Shown: positions 1-32,994 of the stretch, one piece after another
Layout of the letters: each line of letters begins with the position of its first letter
How positions within the stretch are numbered: position 1 is the first letter of the stretch
Source: a virus
Taxonomy: Duplodnaviria; Heunggongvirae; Uroviricota; Caudoviricetes
IMG/VR virus record: IMGVR_UViG_2585428015_000012
Direction: 5' to 3' (one strand)
DNA: 36,836 nucleotides
Program-made: the position numbers and the translations under genes
Notes under the pieces: generated by a model
Database searches by the model: none
Seen by the model: the letters and a program-made list of their open reading frames with translations, nothing else
Told to the model about the DNA's origin: nothing

Positions 1-426
1 ATGGAATTACAGGACTGGCGAAAAGAACCTCGTAAAAACTATTCGAATGAATTCAAACTTCGTATGGTGGAACTGGCATCACAACCTGGAGCTTGTGTTG
101 CACAGATTGCACGTGAAAATGGCGTCAATGATAATGTTATTTTCAAATGGCTCAGGCTCTGGCAGAACGAAGGGCGTGTTTCGCGGCGTCTTCCGGTAAC
201 GACCTCTTCTGACACTGGCGTTGAATTATTACCTGTAGAAATAACGCCGGATGAGCAGAAAGAACCTGTGGCGGCCATTGCGCCGTCTTTATCCACTTCC
301 ACTCAGACCAGAGTCAGTGCCAGTTCCTGCAAGGTGGAATTCCGTCACGGTAACATGACGCTGGAAAATCCATCGCCAGAGCTGCTCACAGTGTTGATCC
401 GTGAACTGACCGGGAGGGGAAGATGA
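1..426 (+). CDS. IS66 orf1 (TnpA-like small HTH protein)
   Basis: 141 aa ORF, first gene of IS66-type triplet; stop overlaps next ORF start (ATGA). Confidence 0.75.
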   Translation: MELQDWRKEPRKNYSNEFKLRMVELASQPGACVAQIARENGVNDNVIFKWLRLWQNEGRVSRRLPVTTSSDTGVELLPVEITPDEQKEPVAAIAPSLSTSTQTRVSASSCKVEFRHGNMTLENPSPELLTVLIRELTGRGR

Positions 427-773
427 TCTCACTCCCATCAGGTACCCGTATCTGGCTCGTTGCCGGCGTTACCGATATGCGTAAATCCTTCAACGGACTG
501 GGAGAACAGGTACAACATGTGCTGAATGATAATCCCTTCTCCGGTCACCTGTTTATCTTCCGTGGCCGACGGGGTGACACCGTCAAAATTCTTTGGGCTG
601 ATGCTGATGGTCTGTGCCTGTTCACCAAACGCCTGGAGGAAGGCCAGTTTATCTGGCCTGCGGTACGTGACGGCAAGGTATCCATTACCCGCTCGCAACT
701 GGCAATGCTCCTCGATAAGCTGGACTGGCGTCAGCCAAAAACATCCAGCCGTAACTCACTGACAATGTTGTAA
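423..773 (+). CDS. IS66 orf2 (TnpB-like accessory protein)
   Basis: 116 aa ORF overlapping orf1 stop; matches the size and position of IS66 Orf2. Confidence 0.75.
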   Translation: MISLPSGTRIWLVAGVTDMRKSFNGLGEQVQHVLNDNPFSGHLFIFRGRRGDTVKILWADADGLCLFTKRLEEGQFIWPAVRDGKVSITRSQLAMLLDKLDWRQPKTSSRNSLTML

Positions 774-803
774 AAAACTCCTGACCGCATTATAAAAACG
801 GTC

Positions 804-2417
804 ATGAGTCAGAAATACCTCATTCGCATCGCAGAGCTGGAAAGGTTGCTCTCTGAGCAGGCTGAAGCCCTCCGTCAGAAAGACCAGCAACTGAGTCTGG
901 TTGAAGAGACGGAAGCCTTCCTGCGCTCTGCACTGACACGTGCCGAAGAAAAGATCGAAGAAGATGAACGGGAAATAGAACATCTGCGGGCTCAGATAGA
1001 AAAACTGCGCCGGATGCTGTTCGGTACCCGTTCTGAAAAACTGCGTCGTGAAGTTGAACTGGCTGAGGCTCTGCTGAAACAACGTGAACAGGACAGCGAT
1101 CGTTACAGTGGGCGGGAAGACGATCCTCAGGTTCCCCGCCAGTTGCGACAGTCGCGCCATCGTCGTCCGTTACCGGCACACCTTCCCCGTGAAATACACC
1201 GCCTGGAGCCAGAAGAAAGCTGTTGCCCGGAGTGTGGCGGTGAGCTGGATTATCTGGGGGAAGTCAGCGCTGAACAGCTGGAACTGGTGAGCAGTGCCCT
1301 GAAAGTGATCCGCACAGAACGGGTAAAAAAAGCCTGTACAAAATGTGACTGTATTGTTGAAGCACCGGCGCCGTCCCGCCCGATAGAGCGTGGTATCGCG
1401 GGCCCCGGATTACTTGCCCGCGTGTTAACGGGAAAATACTGCGAACATCTGCCACTGTATCGTCAGAGTGAAATCTTTGCCCGCCAGGGTGTCGAACTGA
1501 GCCGGGCCTTACTCTCCAACTGGGTTGACGCGTGCTGCCAGTTAATGACACCGGTGAATGATGCCCTGTACCGTTATGTAATGAACACCCGCAAGGTTCA
1601 CACTGATGACACACCGGTAAAGGTACTGGCACCGGGTCAGAAAAAGGCGAAAACAGGGCGTATCTGGACGTATGTCCGGGATGATCGCAATGTGGGTTCG
1701 TCATCTCCTCCAGCGGTCTGGTTCGCGTACTCGCCGAACCGGCAGGGGAAACACCCGGAGCAACACCTCCGCCCCTTCCGGGGTATCCTGCAGGCGGATG
1801 CGTTCACAGGTTACGACAGGTTGTTCAGTGCAGAACGTGAAGGTGGTGCACTGACAGAAGTTGCGTGCTGGGCCCATGCCCGGCGAAAAATCCACGATGT
1901 ATACATCAGCAGCAAAAGTGCGACGGCAGAAGAAGCCCTGAAGCGAATCAGTGAACTGTACGCCATCGAGGATGAAATACGGGGATTACCGGAGTCAGAG
2001 CGTCTTGCCGTCAGGCAGCAGCGAAGCAAAGTGTTACTGACGTCGCTGCATGAATGGATGGTGGAGAAGAATGGTACGCTGTCGAAAAAATCCAGACTGG
2101 GCGAAGCGTTCAGCTATGTACTGAATCAGTGGGATGCCCTCTGTTATTACAGTGATGACGGTCTGGCGGAGGCGGATAATAATGCTGCGGAAAGAGCGCT
2201 TCGTGCAGTCTGTCTCGGAAAGAAAAACTTTATGTTCTTTGGCAGCGATCACGGCGGCGAGCGTGGAGCACTGTTGTACGGGCTGATCGGCACCTGCCGT
2301 CTGAACGGTATCGATCCGGAAGCGTATCTGCGCCATATCCTGAGCGTACTGCCGGAATGGCCTTCCAACCGAGTTGACGAACTCCTGCCATGGAACGTAG
2401 TACTCACCAATAAATAA
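804..2417 (+). CDS. IS66-family transposase (TnpC)
   Basis: 537 aa; N-terminal coiled-coil/leucine-zipper-like region, CPECGGEL...CTKCDC zinc-finger-like motif, acidic-residue-containing core; third ORF of the IS66 triplet. Confidence 0.85.
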   Translation: MSQKYLIRIAELERLLSEQAEALRQKDQQLSLVEETEAFLRSALTRAEEKIEEDEREIEHLRAQIEKLRRMLFGTRSEKLRREVELAEALLKQREQDSDRYSGREDDPQVPRQLRQSRHRRPLPAHLPREIHRLEPEESCCPECGGELDYLGEVSAEQLELVSSALKVIRTERVKKACTKCDCIVEAPAPSRPIERGIAGPGLLARVLTGKYCEHLPLYRQSEIFARQGVELSRALLSNWVDACCQLMTPVNDALYRYVMNTRKVHTDDTPVKVLAPGQKKAKTGRIWTYVRDDRNVGSSSPPAVWFAYSPNRQGKHPEQHLRPFRGILQADAFTGYDRLFSAEREGGALTEVACWAHARRKIHDVYISSKSATAEEALKRISELYAIEDEIRGLPESERLAVRQQRSKVLLTSLHEWMVEKNGTLSKKSRLGEAFSYVLNQWDALCYYSDDGLAEADNNAAERALRAVCLGKKNFMFFGSDHGGERGALLYGLIGTCRLNGIDPEAYLRHILSVLPEWPSNRVDELLPWNVVLTNK

Positions 2418-2447
2418 GCGTCAATACGGTGCTCCGTTGACGCTTAC
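2418..2447. repeat. IS66 right terminal inverted repeat (contains an internal dyad GCGTCAA..TTGACGC)
   Basis: Sequence read directly; begins immediately after the transposase stop and ends with ...CGCTTAC (GTAAGCG on the other strand). Confidence 0.6.
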
Positions 2448-3535
2448 AAATTACCTGCGTAATGAGAAAAACTTGTACCATCCTGCCGTGAAAGCAGATC
2501 GCGCCCTGTATCCACTTTTCGCCCGTCGTCCCATCCACGGATAAACTCACCGCGTAAATCGGGAAGACGGAGGGTCGGGTAGACTCTGGCCAGAACAGGA
2601 TATTGTTCTTTTGTAAAGGCGCGCCCGTCGCACTTTAACCAGCCTGCTGGCGGTGTGGCAGTGGGCCACGGAACAGGTACACCAACGGGCAGCGCCGAGC
2701 CTTCCCCCAAACCAAGGTAATTGAGGACATCTTTTATACTGCCCTTAGCGATAATAGCGCGACCAATAGCTGTAAGGGTTGCCAGCTCTGCGCGGTCTGC
2801 TCCGGTAAAATAAGGCAACCGATCTGCTGCAGTGGCAAGTCCTGCCAGAGCAGTGAGCGTGGCATCTGCCGGTTGTTTTCCGTTTGCCAGATCGTATGCA
2901 GCCTTGACCGCTTTCGGTGTGGCGGCCAGTATTTCAGACGTGCTGTTGATGGCACTGCTCAATTGTACGGTGCCTTTTGCCGTCAGCGAGGCAGCAGGCA
3001 CTCCCGTTATCTGACTCCACGGGTGAGTGTGGCTGACGGGCGCCTTGCCGGCTGCAAGGTCGTATGCAGCCTTGACCGCCTTCGGCGTGGCAGCCTCAGT
3101 TTCTGATTGACTGTCCGTGGCGCTGCTCAGTTGTACGGTGCCTTTTGCCGTCAGTGAAGCCGCAGGCACTCCCGTTATCTGACTCCACGGGTGAGTGTGG
3201 CTGGCAGGCGCCTTGCCGGCTGCCAGGTCGTATGCAGCCTTGACCGCTTTTGGTGTGGCGGCCAGCGTTTCAGAGGTGCTGTTGGTGGCACTGCTCAGTT
3301 GGGTGAACCCCTTAGCTGTCAGTGTCGCGTCCGGGTGGTTACGGGAACGTACGTGTTCAGCCAGTGACTGTGCGGCTTCCTCCGTTTTCTTCTTCAGCCA
3401 TTTCGTCCTGTTTGCCAGTTGCCGGGGGGCTCGATTTGATATCCCGTCTGCACCACCCAGAACCGGATCTGATGTCTCCAGTTGATAGATATTTTCTTCC
3501 CACTTTTCTGTTTCATTCAGGTTTCCCATAATCAA
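2444..3535 (-). CDS. Phage tail fibre protein, 3'-truncated by the IS66 insertion (stop codon lies inside the IS terminal repeat)
   Basis: 363 aa ORF with three tandem ~56 aa repeats (TAKG.VQLSSAT.S.SET.AATPKAVKAAYDLA) and a C-terminal segment matching the phage tail-collar pattern (GWLKCDG...LPDLRGEFIRGW) that breaks off where the IS begins. Confidence 0.75.
   Translation of the reverse strand: MIMGNLNETEKWEENIYQLETSDPVLGGADGISNRAPRQLANRTKWLKKKTEEAAQSLAEHVRSRNHPDATLTAKGFTQLSSATNSTSETLAATPKAVKAAYDLAAGKAPASHTHPWSQITGVPAASLTAKGTVQLSSATDSQSETEAATPKAVKAAYDLAAGKAPVSHTHPWSQITGVPAASLTAKGTVQLSSAINSTSEILAATPKAVKAAYDLANGKQPADATLTALAGLATAADRLPYFTGADRAELATLTAIGRAIIAKGSIKDVLNYLGLGEGSALPVGVPVPWPTATPPAGWLKCDGRAFTKEQYPVLARVYPTLRLPDLRGEFIRGWDDGRKVDTGRDLLSRQDGTSFSHYAGNL
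2860..3340. repeat. Three tandem ~168 bp in-frame repeats inside the tail fibre gene
   Basis: Motif cgtatgcagccttgaccgc recurs at 2893, 3061 and 3229 (168 bp spacing); flanking sequence also repeats. Confidence 0.8.
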
Positions 3536-4110
3536 CTGCTCCCGTGGTTATAACTGCCATCATGGATGGCGGTATTGTTATAGCGAATGGCCACAGACTG
3601 ATACTCCAGGCTGGCCAGATGGCAGCGGGCCGGTGCAAATGCAGCCAGCGTCTGACGCAGCATCGCGGCCTGATCGTTAGTAATGGGCTGTTTCAGAATA
3701 ACGCGATAAACTGCCCAGGCGGCTGCATCTCCATGAACAAACAGTCCGTTATAGCTGCGATTGCCGTCGTAACTGAGACGACCTGTGCCTTCAATCAGAT
3801 CCACTTCACCAAAGCCAAAACGGCGGATAACTTCCCGGATTGACCACGGCGTCCCTTTATACCGGTGCAGTTCGATGGCTGCTTTTATAAGCATGCGGCG
3901 AACATCGTCCGATTCCGCCAGCTCCCAGCCATCGCCAGACAGTGAGAACTGCTCGCCCAGCCATGGCAGCGCGGAACTGTCGACGATATCGACGAGAAAG
4001 ACCATCAGTACGCTCAGGTCGATGTTATCCAGCCGTCCTGCCAGTCTTCCCAGCGTCCTGAGACTGATATCACCCTCAAGCGGTGGCGGGAGTTGTAATG
4101 GCTCAGTCAT
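3532..4110 (-). CDS. Phage tail protein (Mu gp48 / P2 gpI-like)
   Basis: 192 aa ORF between baseplate J-like gene and tail fibre, overlapping both; position and size match the Mu/P2 tail protein I. Confidence 0.65.
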   Translation of the reverse strand: MTEPLQLPPPLEGDISLRTLGRLAGRLDNIDLSVLMVFLVDIVDSSALPWLGEQFSLSGDGWELAESDDVRRMLIKAAIELHRYKGTPWSIREVIRRFGFGEVDLIEGTGRLSYDGNRSYNGLFVHGDAAAWAVYRVILKQPITNDQAAMLRQTLAAFAPARCHLASLEYQSVAIRYNNTAIHDGSYNHGSS

Positions 4111-8430: not shown

Positions 8431-11381
8431 CAGCGGTACTCCTTACGTTGTTTCTGAGCCAGCAGACGCTCCAGCATTTTTTCCAGCTCATGCAGACTCA
8501 TATTCAGGGCACCAGTCAGTCCTGCAGGCGCTGTGGTTTCCCTGCCATTGAGGAAAAACTGAGGATTAAAGCTGACCTGGATACCACCAGACGTTCCACC
8601 GCCGGTTGCAGCTGCACCACGGCCTGAATATCCGGCAGCCAGGATTTCAGGCGAGGGGATACGGGGAACATCCGGTGTCATCTCATTTGCCAGACGTTGC
8701 CCTGGTAAAATCGATGCCCGGGTGGAGAGCGGAATAGCGGGCATGGAAGACAAACTATTGATTACGGCTCCGATCGCATTTTTAGCAGACGACATAAACC
8801 CATTGATATCGGGCAACGGCATACTGAAGCGAACACCTGAAGTGTTATCCCGTATTTCTGGCCCCTGAATGCTCACGGGCATTCTGGGGAGCAGTTCACT
8901 GGCCATTCGCTGCCCGGCCAGAGCTGCAAGCGGAGTGGTCCGCTGCAGGCCAATGGCGGCCCCCTGCGCGATATTGTCACCAAAGCCCATAAACACGCGG
9001 CTCGGCGAATGAATGCCCAGCTTTTCGCTGAACCAGCCACTGATGCTGTCGCCCATTCCGGTTACACTGGATTTGAGCGACTCCCATTTGTTTTTGATAC
9101 CGTTAATCAGACCATCGACAAGATGGCCACCGAAGTCGGTAAACTTTGCCGGCAGATCAACACCAAGATATTTCAGCGCAGCTGCAAAGGCTTTATAGAG
9201 CAGACCTGCCGGCGACCAGTTAATCAGCAGCTTACCAGTTCCCGCGATACCGCCGTTAAAGGCTTCCTGAATGTCAGCCCAGCATTGTTTAAACCAGCTA
9301 CTGATGCTGTCACCCATTCCGGTTACACTGGATTTGAGCGACCCCCATTTGTTTTTGATACCGTTAATCAAACCGTCGATAAGATGGCCACCGAAGTCGG
9401 TGAACTTTGCCGGCAGAGTAACGCCGAAATATTTCAGCGCAGCCGCAAAGGCTTTATAGAGCAGGCCTGCCGGCGACCAGTTAATCAGCAGCTTACCAGT
9501 TCCCGCGATACCGCCGTTAAAGGCTTCCTGAATGTCAGCCCAGCGCTGTTTAAACCAGCCACTGACTGCCCCCCAGTTGCGGTAGATAAGGTAAGCTGCT
9601 GCCGCGACAGCGGTGATAACGAGACCGATGGGATTCATCATCAGCGCTCGCCCAATCCAGAGAACGGCACGTGCAGCGCTCATAAAACCGCGAACGAGGC
9701 TGCCCGCCAGAACTTTGCTGAGTTTCAGTCCTCCGCTGGTCAGTCGGCTGAATCCAGTGACAAGCCAGCGTAATTTGCCACCTTCTCCGAGTGCGGTAGT
9801 CAGTCGATGCCAGTTGGTCCGGAGTAAAACAGCAGTTTTCCAGACGTTCACAAAGGGGGAAATAAGGAGATTCAGCCCCAGTTTGAGACCAACAGTCGCT
9901 ATCTTAATCGCAAGGAGCGCACTGATGAGCTTAAAAGCCCCACTGACAAATTGCGGGTGAGTCGCCACCCAGTGTTTTGTCCCCTGAATGAGTGGGAGCA
10001 AGTCCTGAGTCAGAGAAATAAAAGATGGAGCTAATTGATCGCCCAGCGTAATTGCCAGATCGCGACTGCTGACCATAAGTGTTTTAGTGGCTTCAAGGGG
10101 AGATTTCAGCCGCTGATCATAAGCACTGGCAAGCAAATCGTTATCCGCAGCCCTGAGAGCACCGGCACGGATCTCTCGATATCTGTCCATGTTGGCCAGC
10201 ATCGGGCGGATAAATGCCATGACCTGCATATCCGCGAACATATCGCCCAGACCAAAGTTTTTCGCCAGAGCCTGAAGTGCCTCATCTCTTGCCGTATCAT
10301 TCTTTATTTTCATGGCTGATTTGAAGCCGGCCAGCGCTTCGGGGCTTTTGGCATTGAGGTAACGTTCTATAACACTCAACATCCCTTCAATCGGAGAGAT
10401 CCCCGCAGCTTTATAACTCGCAATAGATCCCTGCAAATCAATACCCAGATCAGCAAACTGTTTCTGAGTATCGCGGGCAAAAATTTTGGTAAGAAAGTTT
10501 TTAAAATTATTGGCTGCTTCGTCGGTGGAACCTGCACCGATTTTTGCTATCTGGAGACTGGCCCCGATTTCAGCAACAGCCTCTTTTCCACTGGCAATAC
10601 CCGCCATCATTGGGGCCAGGGACTGCATCCACTTGACCTGATCCGGGATTTCAAATGACCCCTGGTCACCGGCATAAGCCATAATATTCTGAACGGCACC
10701 AAAATCTCTGGCCGCGCCTTTCAGGGAGTTTTGCCAGACTGCGGCCACTTTTGCCCAGTCCTGAGCAGACGTGCGTGTTGCCGTTGCCGCGCGGGCAATA
10801 TCCGGCATCAGAAAACCGATATCTGACACATTATCAATATTGTCGCTGATGAGTGAACCCATCGCCTCCTGCAGCTCATCCTGATACTGATTGTATTTAA
10901 GCGCCCAGCCTTTTATCTGTCCGGCAAGTGCATCCCGCGTTTTATTGTCATATTTTGCGGTGATCGACATATCAATCATTTTGTCCTGAAAAGACATGGA
11001 CTGCTGAACGGCAGGGGAAACCGTATGATAAACAGTCTGTGCCATGCCATACGCTTCAATCCCCTGACCATACAGCGCCATGCGGTTAGCTTTCAGCGCA
11101 TCACTGGTAGCGGATGCCGCTGACAGACGGCGCTGCTGGCGCTCAATTTGCTCCATGGTGCGGCTTACCCGCAGCAGCTCGCTGTTGAGATGCTGCATCC
11201 GGGAAGAACCCAGTTGACCATAACGTTCTGTTGCACGGGTTAAAGCGTTCTGACGTTCCTGCAGGCGGCGTGAGGTATCGCTCAGGGAATCAAGCGCACG
11301 GCGGGTACCGCTCATTGCAGAACGGAATGTGCTGCCAATCATCCCGCCGATAACAACGCCGACTGAAAACTGTCCCGACAT
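8430..11381 (-). CDS. Tail tape measure protein
   Basis: 983 aa ORF, largest tail gene, coiled-coil-rich N-terminus, hydrophobic central part, internal tandem duplication; GGAGG ribosome-binding site upstream. Confidence 0.85.
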   Translation of the reverse strand: MSGQFSVGVVIGGMIGSTFRSAMSGTRRALDSLSDTSRRLQERQNALTRATERYGQLGSSRMQHLNSELLRVSRTMEQIERQQRRLSAASATSDALKANRMALYGQGIEAYGMAQTVYHTVSPAVQQSMSFQDKMIDMSITAKYDNKTRDALAGQIKGWALKYNQYQDELQEAMGSLISDNIDNVSDIGFLMPDIARAATATRTSAQDWAKVAAVWQNSLKGAARDFGAVQNIMAYAGDQGSFEIPDQVKWMQSLAPMMAGIASGKEAVAEIGASLQIAKIGAGSTDEAANNFKNFLTKIFARDTQKQFADLGIDLQGSIASYKAAGISPIEGMLSVIERYLNAKSPEALAGFKSAMKIKNDTARDEALQALAKNFGLGDMFADMQVMAFIRPMLANMDRYREIRAGALRAADNDLLASAYDQRLKSPLEATKTLMVSSRDLAITLGDQLAPSFISLTQDLLPLIQGTKHWVATHPQFVSGAFKLISALLAIKIATVGLKLGLNLLISPFVNVWKTAVLLRTNWHRLTTALGEGGKLRWLVTGFSRLTSGGLKLSKVLAGSLVRGFMSAARAVLWIGRALMMNPIGLVITAVAAAAYLIYRNWGAVSGWFKQRWADIQEAFNGGIAGTGKLLINWSPAGLLYKAFAAALKYFGVTLPAKFTDFGGHLIDGLINGIKNKWGSLKSSVTGMGDSISSWFKQCWADIQEAFNGGIAGTGKLLINWSPAGLLYKAFAAALKYLGVDLPAKFTDFGGHLVDGLINGIKNKWESLKSSVTGMGDSISGWFSEKLGIHSPSRVFMGFGDNIAQGAAIGLQRTTPLAALAGQRMASELLPRMPVSIQGPEIRDNTSGVRFSMPLPDINGFMSSAKNAIGAVINSLSSMPAIPLSTRASILPGQRLANEMTPDVPRIPSPEILAAGYSGRGAAATGGGTSGGIQVSFNPQFFLNGRETTAPAGLTGALNMSLHELEKMLERLLAQKQRKEYR
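9030..9550. repeat. Tandem ~258 bp duplication inside the tape measure gene (two ~86 aa copies)
   Basis: Near-identical sequence beginning ccagc.actgatgctgtc.cccattccggttacactggatttgagcga recurs ~258 bp apart; the protein shows the corresponding duplicated 86 aa block. Confidence 0.8.
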
Positions 11382-20762: not shown

Positions 20763-22357
20763 CAGAATCCCTCCAGCATACGGGCCGCCTGACGACGACG
20801 GCGTGAGCTTGCCTTCACCGGCCCTTTGTTAATTTCACGGCTGGCGAAATACGCCAGCGCCAGTGCGATGGCTGAATCCCCGTGGCGTTTACCACCGTCA
20901 GCCTTTGCTTTTGAGCGTTGCTCCGGTACGCGGGGGACACCGTTCACCACCTGAACGGCCCGCAGGTCATCCAGTGTGTCTTCATCCTTTGGTAAGTCCA
21001 CCAGGTTGCCGTCTTCCAGTGCAGCTTTGACCGGAGGCATATGCTCCCGGTACCAGCCTTCGGTTGGCATCACCTGCTGAACCCGGCCGGAGCCGTAGCG
21101 CTGCATGGCGTATTCAGCCAGATAGGCACCATTACCACGGGCATCAAACGCTGCACCCAGCAGACCGGGCAGGCCATCCATCAGATACCAGGTGATTTGC
21201 TCCTGCTGTCTGAACGGCACGTTACGCAGCTCCAGTACGAATGGCACGCGTCGTACCAGGTTCTTCTCCTGCAGCAGGGGATAGTCCACCGACAAATCAC
21301 CGCTACGGCCAAAGTCGCGCCCCAGGAAAGAGCGGGCATCAGTGGGGAGTGCCTCCAGCAATGGTTTCAGATACTCATCAAGCCAGTCCTGCGTCTCGCG
21401 GAAGCGAACCTCATCAGACAGCAGTTCATAACCTTCCTTGCAGGTCAGACGCAATACCGGCGTATCAGCGGACATGCGGGACTCTATCAGGGCACGGGAC
21501 AGCCAGGCACCGCCACCGTTGGCCGGAATACAGTCAAGCTCTTCGGATGCGCCGGCACCGTAGAATTTGTACACCGATGCCATCCAGGCCTGCTCGGATG
21601 CCTCCGACCATTCCTTCCCGGTGCGCAGACAGACGCGCCGGAACAGCCCCTCAGATACGGCTTCCCGGAAAGTGATGCGATGTATGCTGCCTCCCTGACG
21701 TCCGGCACGGATATCCCCGATAAGCGTATTGAACGGATTGTCGTCACCGTCATGGGTGGAGATAACGCGTACCTTTCCCCCCCAGATAAGCATCGCCAGC
21801 GCCGCTTTCAGCAGTTCGTCCAGTTGCTCATGGAACGCCGCTTCGTCGATAACAATAATACCCTGACGGCCACGCAGGTTAGACGGGCGGCTGGAGAGCG
21901 CAACAATACGAAAGCCGGAGTCAGGAAATTTGATGGTGTAAGTCTTGATGTGTTTGTCGTCGTCGTCCTCTTCCCAGAATCCTTCTTCAATTTCACTGGC
22001 CGCATAGTTGAATGCCCGTGCCCACATCGCACACGCCTGAATGTATTCGACGGTCATGTCCTGGTTATAAGCGATGTAATACACATTCATCCCGCCTGCT
22101 GGCGCAGAAGAGGCGGCGGTCAGTACGTTATCGGATGCCTCAGCCCATGTAATACCGGTACGACGGCTCTTTTCTATCACCTTAAGCGGAGAGGTGTCTG
22201 CCACCCAGCGCTGCTGGTAAGGCAACAGAACGGGAGGGGCATCCAGCGCCGAGGTATCAGGCAAAACGGGAGCAAGGTTATTCCTCCCGTCCATGGGACT
22301 CATCCCTTCGGGGCCGCCGCCAGCGGCGTTTAAAATCACTCCGGATGATTTTGTCAT
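20762..22357 (-). CDS. Terminase large subunit
   Basis: 531 aa ORF upstream of the portal gene; nuclease-like C-terminal region with conserved acidic residues. Confidence 0.85.
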   Translation of the reverse strand: MTKSSGVILNAAGGGPEGMSPMDGRNNLAPVLPDTSALDAPPVLLPYQQRWVADTSPLKVIEKSRRTGITWAEASDNVLTAASSAPAGGMNVYYIAYNQDMTVEYIQACAMWARAFNYAASEIEEGFWEEDDDDKHIKTYTIKFPDSGFRIVALSSRPSNLRGRQGIIVIDEAAFHEQLDELLKAALAMLIWGGKVRVISTHDGDDNPFNTLIGDIRAGRQGGSIHRITFREAVSEGLFRRVCLRTGKEWSEASEQAWMASVYKFYGAGASEELDCIPANGGGAWLSRALIESRMSADTPVLRLTCKEGYELLSDEVRFRETQDWLDEYLKPLLEALPTDARSFLGRDFGRSGDLSVDYPLLQEKNLVRRVPFVLELRNVPFRQQEQITWYLMDGLPGLLGAAFDARGNGAYLAEYAMQRYGSGRVQQVMPTEGWYREHMPPVKAALEDGNLVDLPKDEDTLDDLRAVQVVNGVPRVPEQRSKAKADGGKRHGDSAIALALAYFASREINKGPVKASSRRRRQAARMLEGF

Positions 22358-31827: not shown

Positions 31828-32994
31828 ATGCTGGTACTGAAGCAGCAACTGAAAGAGGCCCGTATTCCACAGGCGGTGGTGGCGAGAGCTGTCGATGTTT
31901 CTGAGGCCACGCTGGCCCAGATTGTGAATCATAACGCGTGGCCCCGCACCAGCCCCGGAGAAGTGCGCCGGCGTCTTGCGTCCTGGCTGGAAAGTCAGGG
32001 GATTGATACAACGAAGAGTTTTGATGCTGTACAGGGCGCGGCCACGCCCCGTACAGCGGGTACCACAGATAAAACGAGCCTCAGTGAGGAAGAGAATATG
32101 TTACTCAAAAAACAGGTGTTATTTCCAGCAACCAAAAAAGCGTTTGGTCTTTTCCGTGACCCGTTCGCCGACGAAGCCATGCAGGGTTCTGATGATGTGT
32201 TCACCACCCCGGACATTCGCTACGTGCGTGAGGCGCTGTACCAGACAGCCCGTCATGGTGGGTTTATGGCCGTCATCGGTGAGTCCGGTGCGGGTAAATC
32301 CACGCTGCGCCGCGACCTGACTGAACGTATCAACCGCGAGAATGCGCCGGTAATTGTTATCGAGCCATACATCATCGCTATGGAAGACAACGATGTGAAA
32401 GGGAAAACCCTGAAGGCAGCAGCTATTGCCGAAGCCATTATCAGTACCATCGCACCACTGGAAAGCATCAGACGCAGTCAGGACGCCCGTTTTCGCCAGT
32501 TGCATCGCGTCCTGAAAGACAGCAGCCAGGCGGGGTTCAGCCACGTTCTGGTGATTGAGGAGGCCCACAGTCTGCCCATTCCGACACTGAAACACCTCAA
32601 ACGCTTTTTTGAGCTGGAGTCCGGTTTCAAAAAACTGCTGTCCATCGTGCTGATTGGCCAGCCGGAACTGGCGACAAAACTGTCTGAACGCAATATGGAA
32701 GTCCGTGAAGTCGTTCAGCGCTGTGAGGTGGTCGAACTTCTGCCTCTGGACAATAACCTTGAAGAATTTCTGACGTTCAAACTGCAACGGGCCGGTAAAC
32801 AGCTGACGGACATTATGGACGCCGGTGCAGTGGATGCCATACGTGCCCGCCTGAGCAATCCGGGAAGTCACCGTAAAAATATGGTCAGCCTGCTGTATCC
32901 GCTGGCCGTCAGTAACCTGGTAATAGCCGCCATGAATCTGGCCGCTGAAATCGGGGTTCCACAGGTCAACGCTGACGTTGTCAAAGGGGTTTAA
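31828..32994 (+). CDS. Transposition AAA+ ATPase (Mu B functional analogue)
   Basis: Start at ATG 31828 with GAGGAGGG upstream; Walker A GESGAGKST, Walker B-like VLVIEEAH; N-terminal HTH-like segment. Confidence 0.8.
   Translation: MLVLKQQLKEARIPQAVVARAVDVSEATLAQIVNHNAWPRTSPGEVRRRLASWLESQGIDTTKSFDAVQGAATPRTAGTTDKTSLSEEENMLLKKQVLFPATKKAFGLFRDPFADEAMQGSDDVFTTPDIRYVREALYQTARHGGFMAVIGESGAGKSTLRRDLTERINRENAPVIVIEPYIIAMEDNDVKGKTLKAAAIAEAIISTIAPLESIRRSQDARFRQLHRVLKDSSQAGFSHVLVIEEAHSLPIPTLKHLKRFFELESGFKKLLSIVLIGQPELATKLSERNMEVREVVQRCEVVELLPLDNNLEEFLTFKLQRAGKQLTDIMDAGAVDAIRARLSNPGSHRKNMVSLLYPLAVSNLVIAAMNLAAEIGVPQVNADVVKGV

Follow-up and report, generated by a model that had tools for sequence, protein, structure and literature searches.

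An ISEc23 insertion in a three-cassette invertible tail-fibre array of a Bcepmuvirus-like prophage in Escherichia coli

In phage Mu, the gene for the serine invertase Gin adjoins the G segment, which swaps the C-terminus of the tail fibre, and the P1 C segment with Cin and the e14 P segment with Pin follow the same plan. The Mu crossover site is read in frame as ..LGL.. at the point where the constant part of the fibre gives way to the variable part. In Min of plasmid p15B and in shufflons, more than two crossover sites shuffle alternative C-termini onto one constant gene. Sites in direct and inverted orientation coexist in such multiple-inversion systems, and the shufflon enzyme is a tyrosine recombinase that acts on pilV and not on a phage fibre. 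Programmed inversions in prophage fibre genes are already established (PMC9881135), and BcepMu has been reported to be without an invertible G region (PMC2628397). Here we describe a 36,836-nucleotide stretch of Caudoviricetes DNA (IMG/VR virus record IMGVR_UViG_2585428015_000012, hereafter the window), which we classify as a Bcepmuvirus-like transposable prophage of Escherichia coli, and in which an insertion sequence (IS) of the IS66 family, ISEc23, interrupts the tail-fibre gene at window position 2447/2448.

As in the segments of Mu, P1 and e14, a serine invertase gene adjoined the segment that swaps the fibre C-terminus, and a crossover site, s1, encoded ..LGL.. in frame where the constant part meets the variable one. 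The array here had three sites, three cassettes (A, B and C), four states and one fibre-assembly gene (tfa), against two sites and two cassette pairs in Mu, and was much less complex than Min or the shufflons. The core dinucleotide was TT rather than the TC of Mu gix, and the tips were collar-type and gp37-like, unlike the tip of Mu S, which matched the shaft repeats only. The invertible segment also sets this BcepMu-like prophage apart from BcepMu (PMC2628397). Disruption of prophage genes by IS elements, Gin-type fibre switching and multi-site inversion are all established, and no mechanism here is new. We consider it very likely that the IS disables one of three switchable tips while the switch still operates, leaving a phage that is not irreversibly non-adsorbing.

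The ISEc23 insertion and the truncated fibre gene

The right inverted repeat of ISEc23 ended at window position 2447 (...GACGCTTAC), and the letters at 2441-2455 read cgcttac|aaattacc (IS|phage). The element occupied positions 1..2447 on the plus strand, the window opening 85 bp inside its left end. A complete copy of 2,532 bp, with both of its imperfect terminal inverted repeats beginning GTAAGCG, was present in strain Ec-U4 and supplied the left end that the original prediction had placed upstream of the window. The 8-bp direct repeat AAATTACC stood on both sides of ISEc23 in Ec-U4, the target duplication that the same prediction had anticipated; its right copy lay at 2448..2455 and its left copy outside the window (L001 6609-6616). 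The IS-free locus of strain E41-1 (L002) had a single AAATTACC, and joining the Ec-U4 flanks with one copy reproduced the uninterrupted E41-1 sequence exactly. Based on the junction, the inverted repeats, the AAATTACC duplication and this exact reconstruction of the empty site, the insertion is a clean transposition event rather than a stop arising by chance or an artefact of assembly.

We searched 5,426 complete E. coli genomes by megablast with window 2300-3700 (query cover ≥80%). The junction between the fibre constant part (Sc) and cassette A was found in 369 genomes, 368 of which were without the IS; only Ec-U4 carried it. The IS-free matches listed were 100% identical and ended precisely at window base 2448. 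Identical ISEc23 copies occupied three further sites in other genomes, each with an 8-bp duplication, and the four target duplications had no common motif. Since four identical copies occupy four different sites, this is evidently a standard, active copy of ISEc23. It contained tnpA (1-426; Pfam HTH_Tnp_1), tnpB (423-773; TnpB_IS66) and the DDE transposase gene tnpC (804-2417; DDE_Tnp_IS66, zf-IS66, LZ_Tnp_IS66 and IS66_C), all on the plus strand, and RefSeq names the transposase 'IS66-like element ISEc23 family transposase'. The tnpA-tnpB-tnpC order, the DDE_Tnp_IS66 domain, the GTAAGCG ends and the 8-bp duplication are all shared with the ISEc23/ISEc8-like members of the IS66 family, and nothing about the element was unusual.

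The truncated tail-fibre gene (2444..3529, minus strand) encoded 361 aa from an ATG at 3529. The mechanical open reading frame (ORF), 2444..3535 on the same strand, gave 363 aa from a TTG start, but the likely true start is the ATG, overlapping the stop of the gpI-like gene upstream. The original prediction described a fibre ORF that reads from phage sequence into the IS66 terminal repeat and stops there, and this was borne out base by base: the last sense codon, TTG at 2449-2447, took bases 2449 and 2448 from the phage and 2447 from the IS, and the stop, TAA at 2446-2444, lay within the right inverted repeat. The product comprised 360 native residues and one junction-encoded Leu. The intact fibre of E41-1 had 415 aa from the ATG (417 aa from the TTG) and was longer by 55 residues, FDIGSGHSINNYDQIVDNQPGFSRFSFAGPSRGDGVNYVTIRPRNIAFNYIVRAA, a tail that runs FDIGSGHS...RPRNIAFNYIVRAA. 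Intact database relatives with an A tip shared the identical ending, both in a 471-aa protein (P0074) and in one of 527 aa with 38 member sequences (P0082). A homologue search with the truncated fibre returned mostly longer fibres with extra shaft repeats; the exact 415/417-aa fibre was absent from the best 120 homologues, among which P0074 and P0082 were present.

The constant part (Sc; 2728..3529, minus strand) consisted of an N-terminal baseplate-attachment region and a Phage_fiber_2 shaft, and Pfam Phage_fiber_2 matched three stretches of the fibre. The shaft was a 168-bp tandem repeat in 2.5 copies with 84% matches (window 2885-3301; Tandem Repeats Finder). Relatives with more Phage_fiber_2 units were proteins of 471-630 aa, and shaft length therefore varies by repeat copy number. 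Crossover site s1 followed at 2702..2727, reading TTCCCCCAAACC AA GGTAATTGAGGA on the plus strand with its core at 2714-2715. The 5' part of cassette A (2448..2701, minus strand) held the complete Pfam Collar region and ~30 further residues, with the other 55 codons beyond the IS. The Prokaryotic Genome Annotation Pipeline (PGAP) split even the intact 415/417-aa fibre ORF into two to three 'incomplete' pseudogene fragments (L002 6835-8088, and likewise in many RefSeq genomes), and several database entries labelled such fibres 'short-chain fatty acid transporter'. Both the fragmentation and the transporter label look like annotation artefacts.

Pfam Collar matched residues 285-332 of the 363-aa translation and covered positions 1-57 of the 57 in the profile, as it did in the intact protein and in cassette B (2-57 in cassette C), and ~30 native residues lay between the match and the IS junction. 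The collar pattern GWLKCDG...LPDLRGEFIRGW was therefore not cut short, contrary to the original prediction. The best solved homologue of the cassette was the receptor-binding tip of T4 gp37 (2xgf, E=6.5e-15), and in a second stretch, weak and non-significant, the fibre end PRNIAFNYIVRAA aligned to the last residues of gp37, VKNIAFNYIVRLA. Together with the gp12 collar domain, the gp37 tip (PDB 2XGF) is the closest known counterpart of tip A: the collar segments align, and NIAFNYIVR, at the C-terminus of the fibre, falls on the last gp37 residues. A NIAFNYIVR-like C-terminal segment was present in the intact tips A, B and C and missing from the truncated protein of the window. In gp37-type tips the chain extends to a head domain and then doubles back to the collar (PMC12609058); because the lost tail aligns with the gp37 end, homology suggests that the IS removes most of the distal insert together with the strand returning to the collar. 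The earlier statement that the cut falls inside the collar domain is thus structurally defensible, although wrong at the level of the motif.

The gp37 tip has a long iron-binding needle with HxH motifs, whereas the insert of tip A is only ~60 residues long and, read by eye, had no HxH. Tip A is therefore collar-type, without a long iron-binding gp37-like needle. An AlphaFold2 model of the intact A-tip fibre P0074, built from a 20-sequence alignment, had a mean predicted local distance difference test (pLDDT) score of 33 and was discarded as unusable. From what is known of fibre folding, the truncated A fibre would most likely be unable to trimerise or fold, or to bind a receptor.

A three-cassette array beside a Gin-like recombinase

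Past the IS, the order in Ec-U4 was the last 55 codons of cassette A, cassette B, tfa and cassette C reversed, the recombinase gene, and aroA. Both the missing 3' part of the fibre gene and a fibre-assembly gene, which the original prediction had placed on the far side of the IS if not lost, were found there. Cassette B contained a collar, had no constant part of its own and shared the orientation of A, while tfa (Caudo_TAP) and cassette C were in the opposite orientation to A and B. The recombinase, encoded beside s3, had 190 aa with Resolvase and HTH_7 domains; it matched the Mu Gin structures 4m6f and 3uj3 (E=2e-93) and was 72.6% identical to Gin.

Homology between the cassettes began inside 26-bp sites, all three with a TT core. 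In the cassette direction, s1 read TCCTCAATTACC TT GGTTTGGGGGAA and s2 read GGCATAGAAACG TT GGTTTGGGGGAA, in direct repeat with each other, and s3 read GAGAGATAAACG TT GGTTTAGGAGAA, inverted relative to both. Site s1, at which cassette A takes over from the constant part, encoded ..NYLGLGEG... No table of hix, gix, cix and pix sequences was found in the literature, so the Mu genome itself served for comparison. Within the Mu G region, s1 aligned best to gixL (17/26, in the same reading frame), and gixL and s1 both encode ..LGL.. at the constant/variable boundary; Mu gix reads TTATCCAAAACC TC GGTTTACAGGAA.

Exchange at the core joined B or C to Sc in frame, giving proteins of 426 aa (Sc-B) and 443 aa (Sc-C). 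The cassette starts formed inverted arms of 229 nt at 94% and 231 nt at 86% identity, which ended at the core. The IS lengthened the s1-to-s3 segment from 2.0 to 4.6 kb, and the sites, the recombinase gene, cassettes B and C and tfa were all intact beyond it.

Inversion between these sites predicts four arrangements: state 0, with Sc-A, B, inverted tfa and C, and gin; state 1, with Sc-C-tfa, inverted B, inverted A, and gin; state 2, with Sc-B, inverted tfa and C, inverted A, and gin; and state 3, with Sc-A, C-tfa, inverted B, and gin. In state 1, tfa stood directly 3' of Sc-C, preceded by a GAGGG Shine-Dalgarno-like sequence. We searched the complete E. coli genomes for diagnostic junctions in which the exchange falls exactly at the 2-bp core, and all four arrangements were present in natural genomes. 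The Sc-C junction was found in 327 genomes (including EC958 and JJ1887), gin-A in 294, gin-B in 240 and A-end-C in 185, in each case at 100% identity over the full length. In Ecol_276, for example, Sc-B formed an ORF of 428 aa and the opposite strand carried A, C and tfa, and isolates 4/0, 4/1-1, 2/0 and 4/4, which have consecutive accessions and apparently come from one study, fell in different junction lists. The listed 100%-identity matches all placed the exchange within 7 bp around the core, with no mosaics. This confinement to the core despite 229 nt of homology at 94% favours site-specific over homologous recombination. We abandoned an exact partition of the genomes into four states, as the counts were non-additive (369, 327, 294, 240 and 185 against ~604 carriers of the prophage), probably owing to related prophages and variant arrays, and the junction counts serve here only as evidence that each junction exists. 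A 567-aa Sc-B fibre (P0073) had an internal duplication across the crossover-site region (…GRKVDT|RAIIAKGSIKDVLNYLGLGEGS…) and may reflect either aberrant recombination or misassembly.

The exact truncated protein was encoded on at least 24 independent contigs. Two of these, L010 and L011, were identical to the window over 11 kb, including the single base at which Ec-U4 differs. Three junction types occurred within this IS-bearing lineage. Ec-U4 was in state 0 (Sc-A[IS]-B, with tfa and C inverted), and L010 was in state 3 (Sc-A[IS]-C-tfa, with B inverted), carrying the predicted s2xs3 hybrid site TTCTCCTAAACC AA CGTTTCTATGCC adjoining the A remnant. For the third, we looked up an 88-aa remnant ORF that is expected only if the damaged cassette has flipped beside gin, and recovered a metagenome scaffold (L015) plus one more similar contig. 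L015 contained the recombinase gene, a hybrid s3/s1 site (GAGAGATAAACG TT GGTTTGGGGGAA), the A remnant and the junction GGTAATTT|GTAAGCGTCAACGG, and it was 100% identical to the predicted s1xs3 product over 916 nt. L015 carries the flipped A[IS], and the 4.6-kb IS-containing segment has therefore inverted in nature. Much the simplest account of the lineage is that the IS inserted once and inversions came later. L013 and L015 were both from the ENA metagenome assemblies ETEC16-1 (samples SAMN05545016 and SAMN05544995), in which the IS allele was in different states, Sc-A[IS] in one sample and gin-A[IS] in the other.

Consequences for adsorption and competing explanations

We propose that an active ISEc23 transposed into the fibre gene of the Bcepmuvirus-like prophage and duplicated AAATTACC. 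The constant part would be joined at the 26-bp s1 to a variable C-terminal cassette, with B behind s2 in the same orientation, tfa, C behind s3 in the inverted orientation and then the Gin-like serine invertase downstream of A, and inversion of s1 or s2 with s3 would produce four arrangements expressing Sc-A, Sc-B or Sc-C. The IS would have landed in cassette A 55 codons ahead of its stop, removing the distal tip and the C-terminal segment, and in the Sc-A arrangements (states 0 and 3, and the window) the cell would encode a fibre without the distal tip and the C-terminal strand. Carried within the invertible segment, the IS would leave the sites, the invertase, B, C and tfa untouched. As these parts of the switch are intact, inversion could still install an intact tip, and states 1 and 2 would encode an intact Sc-C or Sc-B fibre. 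Judged from the sequence, one of three host-range options has probably been lost and the ability to adsorb retained; we infer that virions bearing tip B or C would be infectious and that the prophage could be induced. To call the prophage probably defective for adsorption, as the original prediction did, was too strong for a lineage that inverts and in which two further cassettes, tfa, the recombinase and three sites are intact. Its alternative, an altered host range, is the better reading, with one of three tips lost. The insertion is probably ordinary prophage wear and not the mark of a dead phage.

It is very unlikely that the IS leaves the prophage permanently non-adsorbing, with its only receptor-binding end destroyed or lost. 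The sole fibre ORF joined to the baseplate module in the window arrangement is indeed truncated, and tfa is not co-oriented with it in Ec-U4. Past the IS, however, cassettes B and C persist complete, as do tfa, the invertase and all three sites; both cassettes fuse in frame to Sc and both fusions are real genes elsewhere, and inversions after the insertion have occurred in the IS lineage, including one that moved the damaged cassette off the expression position. There is next to no chance that the fibre is not truncated at all and has its native stop about here, with the IS merely just downstream, a case that the original prediction had itself raised. Beyond being possible a priori, nothing spoke for it, and it is already refuted: no native stop near the junction was found in IS-free homologues, the ORF of the IS-free locus runs 55 codons on, P0074 and P0082 share the 55-residue tail, and the intact fibre ends on residues matching those conserved at the C-terminus of T4 gp37. 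We regard it as highly improbable that the arrangements are products of RecA-dependent homologous recombination acting on the inverted repeats (229-231 nt), which would make the switch slow and incidental. The arms are long and similar enough (229 nt at 94%, 231 nt at 86%), but homologous recombination would scatter crossovers along them and generate mosaics, whereas the core-exchange junction queries gave 100.0% full-length matches in natural genomes and the exchanges in L010 and L015 were confined to ~7 bp around the core. An intact invertase gene, its product 73% identical to Gin, also stands beside s3.

The insertion might instead have been selected, if a disabled or altered fibre benefits the host through less productive induction or through an altered surface-masking or defence role. 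The truncated allele was present in at least 24 assemblies, in other strains identical ISEc23 copies had entered different cassettes, in this array or a related one, and there is a precedent in the invertible fibre segment of the cryptic prophage e14 (PinQ), which was reported to yield a protein that blocks T2 adsorption (PMC12529663). Still, clonal hitch-hiking explains the spread equally well, the other cassette hits came from a cassette-biased query while one further hit was in a terminase gene, the target duplications had no common motif, and only 1/369 Sc-A loci in RefSeq complete genomes carried the insertion, making selection decidedly unlikely. A bolder form, in which ISEc23 repeatedly remodels an active array because the products serve the host as receptor-masking or decoy proteins (cf. 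e14/PinQ) and the collar-only fibre is a selected variant, is very unlikely.

Several points weigh against our preferred reading, that one of three tips is disabled and the switch still operates. The window starts inside the IS, and the arrangement beyond it is taken from the identical or near-identical L010, L011 and Ec-U4. L015 is a 1.1-kb metagenome scaffold that stops short of the tip joined to Sc. With the AlphaFold2 model unusable, the role of the lost residues is read from sequence homology to gp37. The junction counts are not additive (e.g. gin-B 240 vs A-end-C 185). A single tfa serves three cassettes, and it is inverted in state 0 and not 3' of tip B in state 2. Gin systems are expected to have a Fis-dependent recombinational enhancer towards the 5' end of the invertase gene; the first 200 nt of the recombinase gene here were 78% identical to Mu gin at the DNA level.

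A three-site array with a single tfa in a BcepMu-like phage is mildly interesting. The locus also offers a natural case of a switch that tolerates a 2.5-kb insertion, with the segment more than doubled and inversion products still found. Since the fibre end is phase-variable, a fibre-dead look in one assembly snapshot is compatible with working tips, and prophage 'intactness' calls and annotation pipelines should weigh invertible cassette arrays before calling a fibre broken.

Prophage context and further insertions

The prophage sat between ycaL and aroA. Its early region encoded Ner-like, MuA-like, MuB-like, Gam and Mor proteins and was divergent from a late region with a P2-like tail module. 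It was 99.9% identical to Escherichia phage PhiKM (Bcepmuvirus) over 99% of 19.5 kb. PhiKM was considered as evidence of viability and rejected: its record covers part of the genome only, the fibre end is uninformative, and a literature search for the phage found no paper. The prophage was carried by ~604 of the complete E. coli genomes (~11%), many of them labelled sequence type 131 (ST131); with about one in nine complete genomes carrying it, a host-range switch is relevant to phage-mediated gene flow there. All 49 other coding sequences of the window that were compared were identical to the E41-1 reference, with TerL intact. Upstream of the fibre, the P2 gpI-like tail protein I gene (3532..4110, minus strand; Pfam Tail_P2_I) was identical to that of the reference prophage, its stop overlapped by the fibre start, and belonged to an intact V-W-J-I baseplate module (Pfam Baseplate_J, annotation).

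Further copies of ISEc23 identical to that of the window were found at several loci. In AZ 186 (L006 2569-5100) the IS lay in cassette C beside gin in the aroA prophage (CATCCACG), and in AVS0790 (L005 2569-5100), as well as AVS0196, a related prophage situated near glpQ had it in the cassette closest to gin (GAGTTATC). These other cassette insertions are independent events. We do not claim a preference of ISEc23 for fibre cassettes, as the search was cassette-biased and the four duplications shared no motif. In E41-1 (L004 17669-20200) the IS lay in the TerL gene with duplication TAACCAGG, at window ~22060-22067; this site was uninterrupted in 603/604 genomes, pointing to another one-off hit. 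An apparent 1-bp 'indel' between the window and E41-1 was dismissed as an alignment-end artefact at E41-1's own IS junction.

Ec-U4 also carried a 2,971-bp ISEcp1-blaCTX-M-15-wbuC unit (L003 5636-8606) within the MuB-like (ExeA family) gene of the same prophage. Its insertion site corresponded to window 32355-32359, where a 5-bp overlap marks the duplication. That the window prophage had likewise been hit twice was considered and rejected: the window was without the ISEcp1 unit, its MuB-like gene was intact and it matched L010 and L011. IS elements aside, Ec-U4 and E41-1 differed over the aroA-to-gpI interval solely by a 94-bp indel (L001 ~4115 vs L002 ~4413), which falls between the recombinase gene and aroA, close to where the prophage presumably ends. 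The tape-measure gene contained an internal direct repeat of ~290 bp at 92% identity (window 9031-9583); its alleles differed between the Ec-U4 and E41-1 annotations, and some metagenome contigs had length variants.

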